Positions 9,128 through 9,175 of a DNA stretch of 64,000 nt are shown one piece after another. Origin of the DNA: Escherichia coli (GTDB lineage Bacteria > Pseudomonadota > Gammaproteobacteria > Enterobacterales > Enterobacteriaceae). The translations under genes were made by a program, and so were the position numbers. Position 1 is the stretch's first letter. Each line of letters begins with the position of its first letter. Below the pieces are notes generated by a model. The model was not told where the DNA came from. It ran no database searches and saw only the letters and a program-made list of their open reading frames with translations. The stretch lies in NCBI RefSeq assembly GCF_013122565.1, contig NZ_CP053258.1; one strand, written 5' to 3'.

Positions 9128-9175
9128 TAGATAATCATTGGATGGCACAATCAATTTTCGCTAATGATAACCATT
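9128..9175 (+). promoter_or_regulatory. Two Fur-box-like sequences at the yddA 5' end
   Basis: gataatcattgg (9128-9141) and taatgataaccatt (9161-9175) versus Fur consensus GATAATGATAATCATTATC; the second overlaps the annotated ATG. Confidence 0.5.

Follow-up and report, generated by a model that had tools for sequence, protein, structure and literature searches.

The yddA-yddB-pqqL operon of Escherichia coli carries a conserved Fur operator that overlaps the annotated yddA start codon

The classical Fur-controlled promoters of E. coli, including fhuA, fepA-fes, fepB-entC, cirA, fiu, fhuF and ryhB, possess a 19-bp operator of the GATAATGATAATCATTATC type composed of phased hexamers, which overlaps the promoter region and represses transcription in iron-replete cells. 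The operator at the 5' end of yddA is of the same type, overlaps its promoter region in a similar way and scores above the median of 25 classical Fur sites. However, the classical operators sit over the -35 and -10 elements, whereas that of yddA is located just downstream of the transcription start site (TSS), at +3 to +27, and yddA has an extra occupied site ~100 bp into the coding region. The gene content of the operon is the same as that of the Fus system of Pectobacterium, which comprises the TonB-dependent transporter FusA, the M16 protease FusC and the ABC transporter FusD. YddB and PqqL are homologues of the ferredoxin-uptake proteins FusA and FusC, and the system has been described as a Fus-like, protease-associated importer; iron regulation is common to Fus and the E. 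coli system (Grinter et al. 2019, PMC6793856). Compared to Fus, the E. coli operon has a different gene order and lacks a dedicated TonB homologue. Strains deleted for yddB or pqqL showed no growth defect when iron was limited in vitro (PMC6793856).

Fur control of this operon has been described before. A Fur box over the yddA start and derepression upon deletion of fur were reported by Subashchandrabose et al. (2013, PMC3855560), who also found that the three genes are co-transcribed and induced >30-fold in urine; an earlier macroarray study cited therein had assigned yddABpqqL to the Fur regulon. Their putative Fur box, GGGAATGGTTATCATTAG, is the reverse complement of positions 9161-9178 of the sequence analyzed here, and agrees with our operator in locus, sequence and conclusion, with no difference regarding Fur control. 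The operon is also among those bound by Fur upstream and raised by RyhB, and O2 too affects its transcript levels (Beauchene et al. 2015, PMC4676285). Fur ChIP or direct-regulon membership of yddAB-pqqL is given in PMC4676285, in PMC7157518 (Banerjee et al. 2020) and in PMC10164565 (Gao et al. 2023); in the last, the log2 fold change of yddA in the Δfur strain is +3.06 for MG1655 and +6.9 for W3110, and is positive in eight of nine strains. The published derepression of the operon upon fur deletion spans 8- to 120-fold (~52-fold in CFT073), and its transcripts are up in urine and serum. The original prediction had suggested iron-responsive control from two Fur-box-like segments ahead of yddA, and the published Fur ChIP, the Δfur derepression and the induction of PqqL by bipyridine bear this out: yddA-yddB-pqqL is a direct member of the Fur regulon, as was already known.

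The response to chelators is divided. The PqqL protein increases with 2,2'-bipyridine and in urine (PMC6793856), whereas qPCR in CFT073 revealed no response of yddA, yddB or pqqL within 2 h of exposure to dipyridyl or extra iron, despite derepression of all three genes in the Δfur strain (PMC3855560). Therefore, iron is not the sole input to this operon.

The window, i.e. the whole stretch of E. coli DNA analyzed here, covers 64,000 nucleotides (64 kb), and the features of the yddA locus within it are listed in Table 1. A segment of 801 bases around the yddA 5' region was matched, at 95-99% identity, in 5,350 of the 5,426 complete genomes of E. coli, where the annotation lists ydeM, yddA and, on the opposite strand, the small gene yneP. 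In a K-12 derivative, the 561-aa product of yddA is followed by yddB. About 750 genomes gave partial matches with less than 80% of the query covered, and for the strains AGR5151 and 4973 only part of the query was matched. One partial match (hit H11) ends at about window position 8881, where the next annotated feature is an M16 peptidase. The partial matches suggest natural deletions in some E. coli genomes, which may have removed the promoter together with yddA and yddB.

Table 1. Features of the yddA locus in window coordinates; positions with + or - signs in the last column are relative to the TSS at 9158.
Feature	Position	Strand	Remarks
ydeM	ends 8873		
yneP	8839-8961	-	Validated 40-aa small protein (PMC6001520); divergent from yddA; overlaps the 3' end of ydeM
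-35 hexamer TTGCCA	9122-9127	+	Promoter consensus scan; -36 to -31
Box 1	9124-9142		One good half-site over the -35 hexamer and spacer; -34 to -16; function doubtful
Extended -10 TGgCACAAT	9143-9151	+	Promoter scan, TG present; hexamer CACAAT at 9146-9151 (-12 to -7)
yddA TSS	9158	+	Published SMRT-Cappable-seq, mapped here
Main Fur operator	9160-9184		Four hexamers GCTAAT GATAAC CATTCC CATTAC; +3 to +27; contains the ATG at 9164
Annotated yddA start ATG	9164-9166	+	RefSeq; ATG inside the Fur consensus (..TAATGAT..)
yddA, annotated ORF	9164-10849	+	561 aa
yddA, CDS from the probable true start	9191-10849	+	From annotated Met10; SbmA/BacA-like ABC permease-ATPase
Secondary Fur-like site	9256-9280		Inside the yddA coding region; +99 to +123
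yddB	10887-13259	+	FusA-like TonB-dependent outer-membrane transporter
pqqL	13304-16099	+	Periplasmic M16 zinc protease, FusC-like

Domain search assigned YddA to the Pfam families PF06472 (ABC_membrane_2), PF05992 (SbmA_BacA) and PF00005 (ABC_tran), and the closest solved structure is that of Rv1819c (PDB 6tqe, 2e-67). Rv1819c has an exporter-type fold, yet it functions as an importer. The label "ABC exporter" in the original prediction is doubtful in view of this nearest structure. YddB matched its own crystal structure (PDB 6ofr, E = 0) and the ferredoxin receptor FusA (PDB 4zgv, 1.5e-79). PqqL matched its own structures (PDB 6ofs and 6oft, E = 0), followed at ~1e-59 by PDB 6b03 and 6b05, which are named only "Putative zinc protease" in the PDB output and which we take to be FusC. 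Altogether, a FusA-like TonB-dependent transporter, an M16 protease and an ABC transporter are encoded in one operon, and the homologies predict that its products form a Fus-like import system with YddB in the outer membrane, PqqL in the periplasm and YddA in the inner membrane.

To locate Fur sites, we counted matches to the 19-bp Fur consensus GATAATGATAATCATTATC on both strands of the whole window, and scanned the window with a symmetric position weight matrix (PWM). The PWM was built from 25 sites in the intergenic regions of 16 other K-12 Fur promoters (fhuA, fepA-fes, fepD-entS, fepB-entC, fecA, fhuF-yjjZ, cirA, mntH, nrdH, nfeF-nfeR, fhuE, fiu, feoA, ryhB, exbB and yncE) with yddA excluded; as the sites were refined iteratively from the consensus, the matrix is partly circular toward the consensus, and it is independent of yddA. 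Positions 9160-9178 match the consensus at 15 of 19 bases, the best match on either strand of the 64 kb, and score 17.84 bits, ranking first among 63,982 window positions, compared to 13.8 bits for the next best match and 15.0 bits for the median training site. A second match, shifted by 6 bp (9166-9184), overlaps the first and ranks third with 12.25 bits, so that the operator forms an array of four hexamers over 25 bp. Upon dinucleotide shuffling of the region 8874-9300 (37% G+C), only two of 5,000 shuffles attained 17.84 bits (0.04%; P ~4e-4), and the native region holds five PWM matches of at least 9.5 bits against 0.3 expected from the shuffles. The second of the two segments in the original prediction, TAATGATAACCATT at 9162-9175, falls within this array and indeed spans the annotated start codon of yddA, as had been stated.

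Published Fur occupancy was then placed on the window by means of the first base of the annotated yddA start codon, which is 1579342 in NC_000913.3, 1581056 in W3110 and 1765014 in CFT073; the K-12 and window sequences align without indels from -290 to +200. Coordinates in U00096.2 were converted to NC_000913.3 with what we take to be an offset of 1975 bp resulting from two IS insertions. With this offset, the yncE footprint at 1521238-1521250 falls on the PWM site in the K-12 pqqU-yncE intergenic region. U00096.2 coordinates are used in the MG1655 sheet of Dataset 2 of PMC10164565, in which one ChIP-exo footprint (1577347-1577374) maps to window 9157-9184 and a second one (1577233-1577267) to 9264-9298, both under iron-replete conditions. 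The W3110 ChIP-exo peak at 1581039-1581051, for which no offset is required, falls on 9169-9181; in CFT073, the ChIP-seq peak is centred on 1765013, equivalent to window 9165. Hence three independent published data sets, from three strains, place Fur on the array at 9160-9184; Fur ChIP data had been proposed as a check in the original prediction. In the MG1655 sheet, the gene and transcription-unit labels are one row off the peak coordinates from about P38 on; for example, the adhP peak is labelled yddA, and of the two actual yddA peaks one has no label and the other is labelled uxaB. Several fec footprints listed there as intergenic map within fecR or fecD. Training of the PWM on the MG1655 ChIP-exo footprints was dropped on account of these shifted labels and fec footprints.

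The array lies in a region covered by RNA polymerase. A promoter scan revealed a sigma-70 promoter with an 18-bp spacer between TTGCCA and CACAAT. The -35 element is kept as TTGC[C/A]A across four Escherichia lineages and an ortholog with 83% YddA identity, and TGGCACAAT in the -10 region is invariant in all five aligned sequences, including the 83% ortholog. SMRT-Cappable-seq (Supplementary Data 2) places the TSS of b1496 at reverse-strand position 1579348, corresponding to window 9158, 6 nt upstream of the ATG at 9164 and 7 nt past the -10 hexamer; the operator therefore occupies +3 to +27, against a promoter at 9122-9151. The TSS, a T with a positional uncertainty of a base or two, was obtained from a culture without iron limitation, hence under repressing conditions, and another TSS might dominate under derepression. 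The Cappable-seq supplement (PMC4782308) has no entry near yddA. An alternative -10 element, GATAAT at 9130-9135 with TTCATC as -35, was rejected: the TSS fits CACAAT, and GATAAT is not conserved. A structured leader or riboswitch was also rejected, as there is no Rfam match in the region and the 5' RNA of E. coli yddA folds no better than shuffled sequences (z = +0.75).

Orthologous operons were collected by protein search and contig look-ups, yielding loci with YddA identities of 83, 58, 52, 51 and 48%; a contig scan with YddA alone gave eight loci, one of which was a useful distant ortholog. The gene order of ABC transporter, TonB-dependent transporter and M16 protease is kept in all five ortholog contigs. 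In each of these syntenic loci, the best PWM match of the entire locus (17.5-21.9 bits) is found 29-67 bp upstream of yddA and has 6-bp-phased neighbours, similar to the E. coli array. The operator core CGYTAATGATAA is invariant in an alignment of the window and K-12 with two further Escherichia lineages and the 83% ortholog, and the core TAATGATAA is likewise part of the main operator. Altogether, the rank of the match, the occupancy in three strains, the placement in the promoter region and the conservation in divergent operons establish 9160-9184 as a genuine, strong and conserved Fur operator. The 58%-identity operon, with a 21.9-bit Fur box, comes from a Logan contig (ERR12378274; 1-5500 and 6001-12928), where it is accompanied by genes for ParB, a ParA-like ATPase, a Rep3 replication initiator, an integrase and an IS21 helper; judging from these neighbours, it apparently resides on a plasmid or mobile element. 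One contig binned as "Candidatus Nanosynbacter sp." (JARKOR010000108.1) carries a yddA 99% identical to that of E. coli with a K-12-type 5' region, and almost certainly represents a mis-binned E. coli contig.

In addition to the main operator, a weaker Fur-like site that the original prediction had not mentioned is found within the yddA coding region. Two PWM matches make up this site at 9256-9280, one of 10.65 bits (rank 15) and one of 9.51 bits (rank 25). Three further Escherichia sequences score higher here, at 15.2-17.0 bits, and the 83% ortholog lacks the site. The second MG1655 ChIP-exo footprint overlaps this site, as seen in one data set. The pairing of this published footprint with the intragenic Fur-like site is a minor new point. 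On the other side of the promoter, 65-83 bp upstream of the yneP start, positions 9026-9044 (GATTATCAATAGCATAACC) give a 10.8-bit match (rank 14), likewise absent from the original prediction; no ChIP-exo footprint is reported at 9026-9044.

Downstream of the annotated start codon there is an in-frame ATG at 9191, 27 bases away, which the original prediction had put forward as the possible true start. RefSeq/PGAP gives 561 aa from 9164 throughout, and the EcoCyc and UniProt entries are presumably likewise 561 aa. Neither ATG is preceded by a Shine-Dalgarno (SD) sequence, so that sequence alone cannot choose between the two; furthermore, the TSS at 9158 leaves a leader of 6 nt with no room for an SD before the ATG at 9164. 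A literature search for direct data on the yddA start codon (initiation profiling or N-terminal) found none. Among 11 Escherichia sequences, codons 1-9 contain four nonsynonymous (T3I, I4V, F8L and C9R) and no synonymous variants, compared to three nonsynonymous and 47 synonymous variants in codons 10-112, and the alignment showed that the period-3 variation begins at 9191. A one-sided Fisher test of 4:0 versus 3:47, calculated by hand, gives ~1e-4, with the variants of these related sequences not being independent events. A fifth nonsynonymous variant, P5L, occurs in the sequence P0004.

The orthologs point to the same codon. The 83% ortholog has ATG ATA ATT GTT ACC ATT TAG ACT TGT ATG in this stretch; as an in-frame TAG follows the ATG inside the box, this gene must start at the equivalent of Met10, and its called protein (P0008) begins MLIAKYLCLLKPFW. 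Eight more distant orthologs have 9-12 residues ahead of a conserved [LI][KR]PFW motif, compared to nine in E. coli if counted from Met10 and eighteen from Met1. None of the orthologs examined has an SD before its start, and the 5' RNA of yddA is unstructured; the missing SD at 9191 is therefore no argument against this codon. Taking the comparative analysis together with the published TSS, we infer that yddA probably starts at the ATG at 9191, with an annotation nine codons too long. The TSS, the variants, the ortholog stop and the ortholog N-termini thus favour the downstream Met of the original prediction, short of proof.

Based on these data, we propose the following account. In iron-replete cells, Fe2+-Fur, probably as two dimers, occupies the array at 9160-9184 within the RNA polymerase footprint and would block initiation or promoter escape, presumably by steric occlusion, and the occupied weaker site at +99 to +123 may assist repression. 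Without iron or without Fur, the operon is derepressed, and translation would start at the ATG at 9191 on an unstructured, AU-rich and SD-less leader of 33 nt. We assign a probability of roughly 0.88 to this account as a whole, comprising promoter, operator, Fur repression, Fus-like products, auxiliary sites and the start at 9191. Its most specific form, which we favour only slightly, combines the misannotated start, such that the first 27 nt of the leader serve as operator, with a second, intragenic operator at 9256-9280 that may have been gained or strengthened within Escherichia and may act as a roadblock or looping partner.

Alternatively, the Fur-like matches might have arisen by chance in an AT-rich region, with the Fur dependence being indirect, e.g. 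through RyhB or another regulator. The base composition of the region, the influence of RyhB and O2 on transcript levels and the absent dipyridyl response in one study (PMC3855560) would fit this explanation; however, the shuffles of the same AT-rich region equal the best match in a mere 0.04% of cases, the position of the site is kept in five divergent orthologous operons, and ChIP-exo and ChIP-seq put Fur exactly on the site in three strains, so that the mapped ChIP data have effectively refuted it already and we consider it highly improbable. The first predicted segment, GATAATCATTGG at 9130-9141, raises a separate question, namely whether box 1 is a functional second operator, where Fur bound on its own or polymerising from the main array would cover the -35 hexamer and spacer and contribute substantial repression. 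Fur is known to spread from strong sites, and box 1 has a perfect GATAATCATT core over the -35 hexamer, reaches 7.0 bits in CFT073-type alleles, and lies in a region (8874-9300) with nine matches of at least 4.73 bits compared to 2.6 expected. Nevertheless, box 1 itself matches the consensus at 12 of 19 bases and scores just 4.73 bits (rank 191 in the 64-kb window), a level that ~2.6 matches per shuffled region are expected to attain. Two other Escherichia lineages have GACAAT or GTCAAT in place of its GATAAT, with scores dropping to 0.2 and -1.8, and box 1 is unrecognisable in the 83% ortholog. Moreover, the ChIP-exo footprints of MG1655 and W3110 do not reach box 1, and none of the three data sets contains a separate footprint on 9124-9142. 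A functional second operator at this position is therefore doubtful: of the two predicted segments, the second is a credible operator, whereas box 1 probably does not act as an operator by itself and is at most a weak auxiliary half-site.

As for the start codon, the ATG at 9164 might be real after all, in which case yddA would be translated from a nearly leaderless mRNA (4-6 nt) into a 561-aa protein with an MITIPITFC extension, and Fur would bind over its first codons. The reading frame beginning at 9164 is uninterrupted in each of the 11 Escherichia sequences, in keeping with the uniform database annotation, the TSS is close to the AUG at 9164, and the ATG at 9191 is equally devoid of an SD. 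However, a run of nine open codons would turn up by chance roughly two times in three, and the presence of an ATG at 9164 can be explained by the Fur consensus alone, which includes ATG. In E. coli, leaderless initiation drops strongly when nucleotides are added 5' of the start. Furthermore, the four to five nonsynonymous versus no synonymous variants in codons 1-9, in contrast to 3:47 downstream, the in-frame stop between the two ATGs of the 83% ortholog, and the ortholog N-termini of Met10 length all argue against a start at 9164, which we regard as unlikely compared to the start at 9191.

Fur control and a Fur box over the annotated start were already on record from 2003-2013, and later work mapped them at near base resolution; the present analysis has little significance beyond confirmation. 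What it adds is the position of the operator at +3 to +27, the 25-bp phased array, the conservation at 48-83% identity and the weakness of box 1, as well as the correspondence between footprint and intragenic site and the argument for a misannotated start codon, all of them minor points. In practice, the N-terminus of YddA as annotated is probably nine residues too long, which is relevant to expression, tagging and translational fusions. Reporters intended to capture full Fur control should cover the first ~120 bp of the coding region, which include the second occupied site, and box 1 should be treated as an operator only once a footprint supports it.

The yddA box also resembles a Fur box at a different locus. 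The K-12 yncE box AATAATGATTACCATTCCC, located between pqqU and yncE (L025, 505-523; 18.5 bits), is identical to the yddA box GCTAATGATAACCATTCCC at 16 of 19 positions, and the two share the same non-consensus right arm ACCATTCCC, with the yncE box adjoining a different TonB-dependent transporter. This likeness may reflect coincidence, common ancestry or constraint. Elsewhere in the window, the second-best PWM match (13.8 bits) is found at 61365-61383 (GATATTCAATAACATTCTC), a position not in the published list of MG1655 footprints. The adhP footprint of MG1655 (1551898-1551925 in U00096.2) corresponds to window positions ~34606-34633, where the match at 34623 (GTGATTAAATCTCATTTGC) reaches no more than 8.1 bits, and thus marks an occupied Fur site with a weak motif. 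The sole Rfam match in the 64 kb is SECIS_3 at 40301-40359 on the minus strand (84.3 bits), a selenocysteine insertion element that is presumably part of fdnG, the gene for formate dehydrogenase-N.
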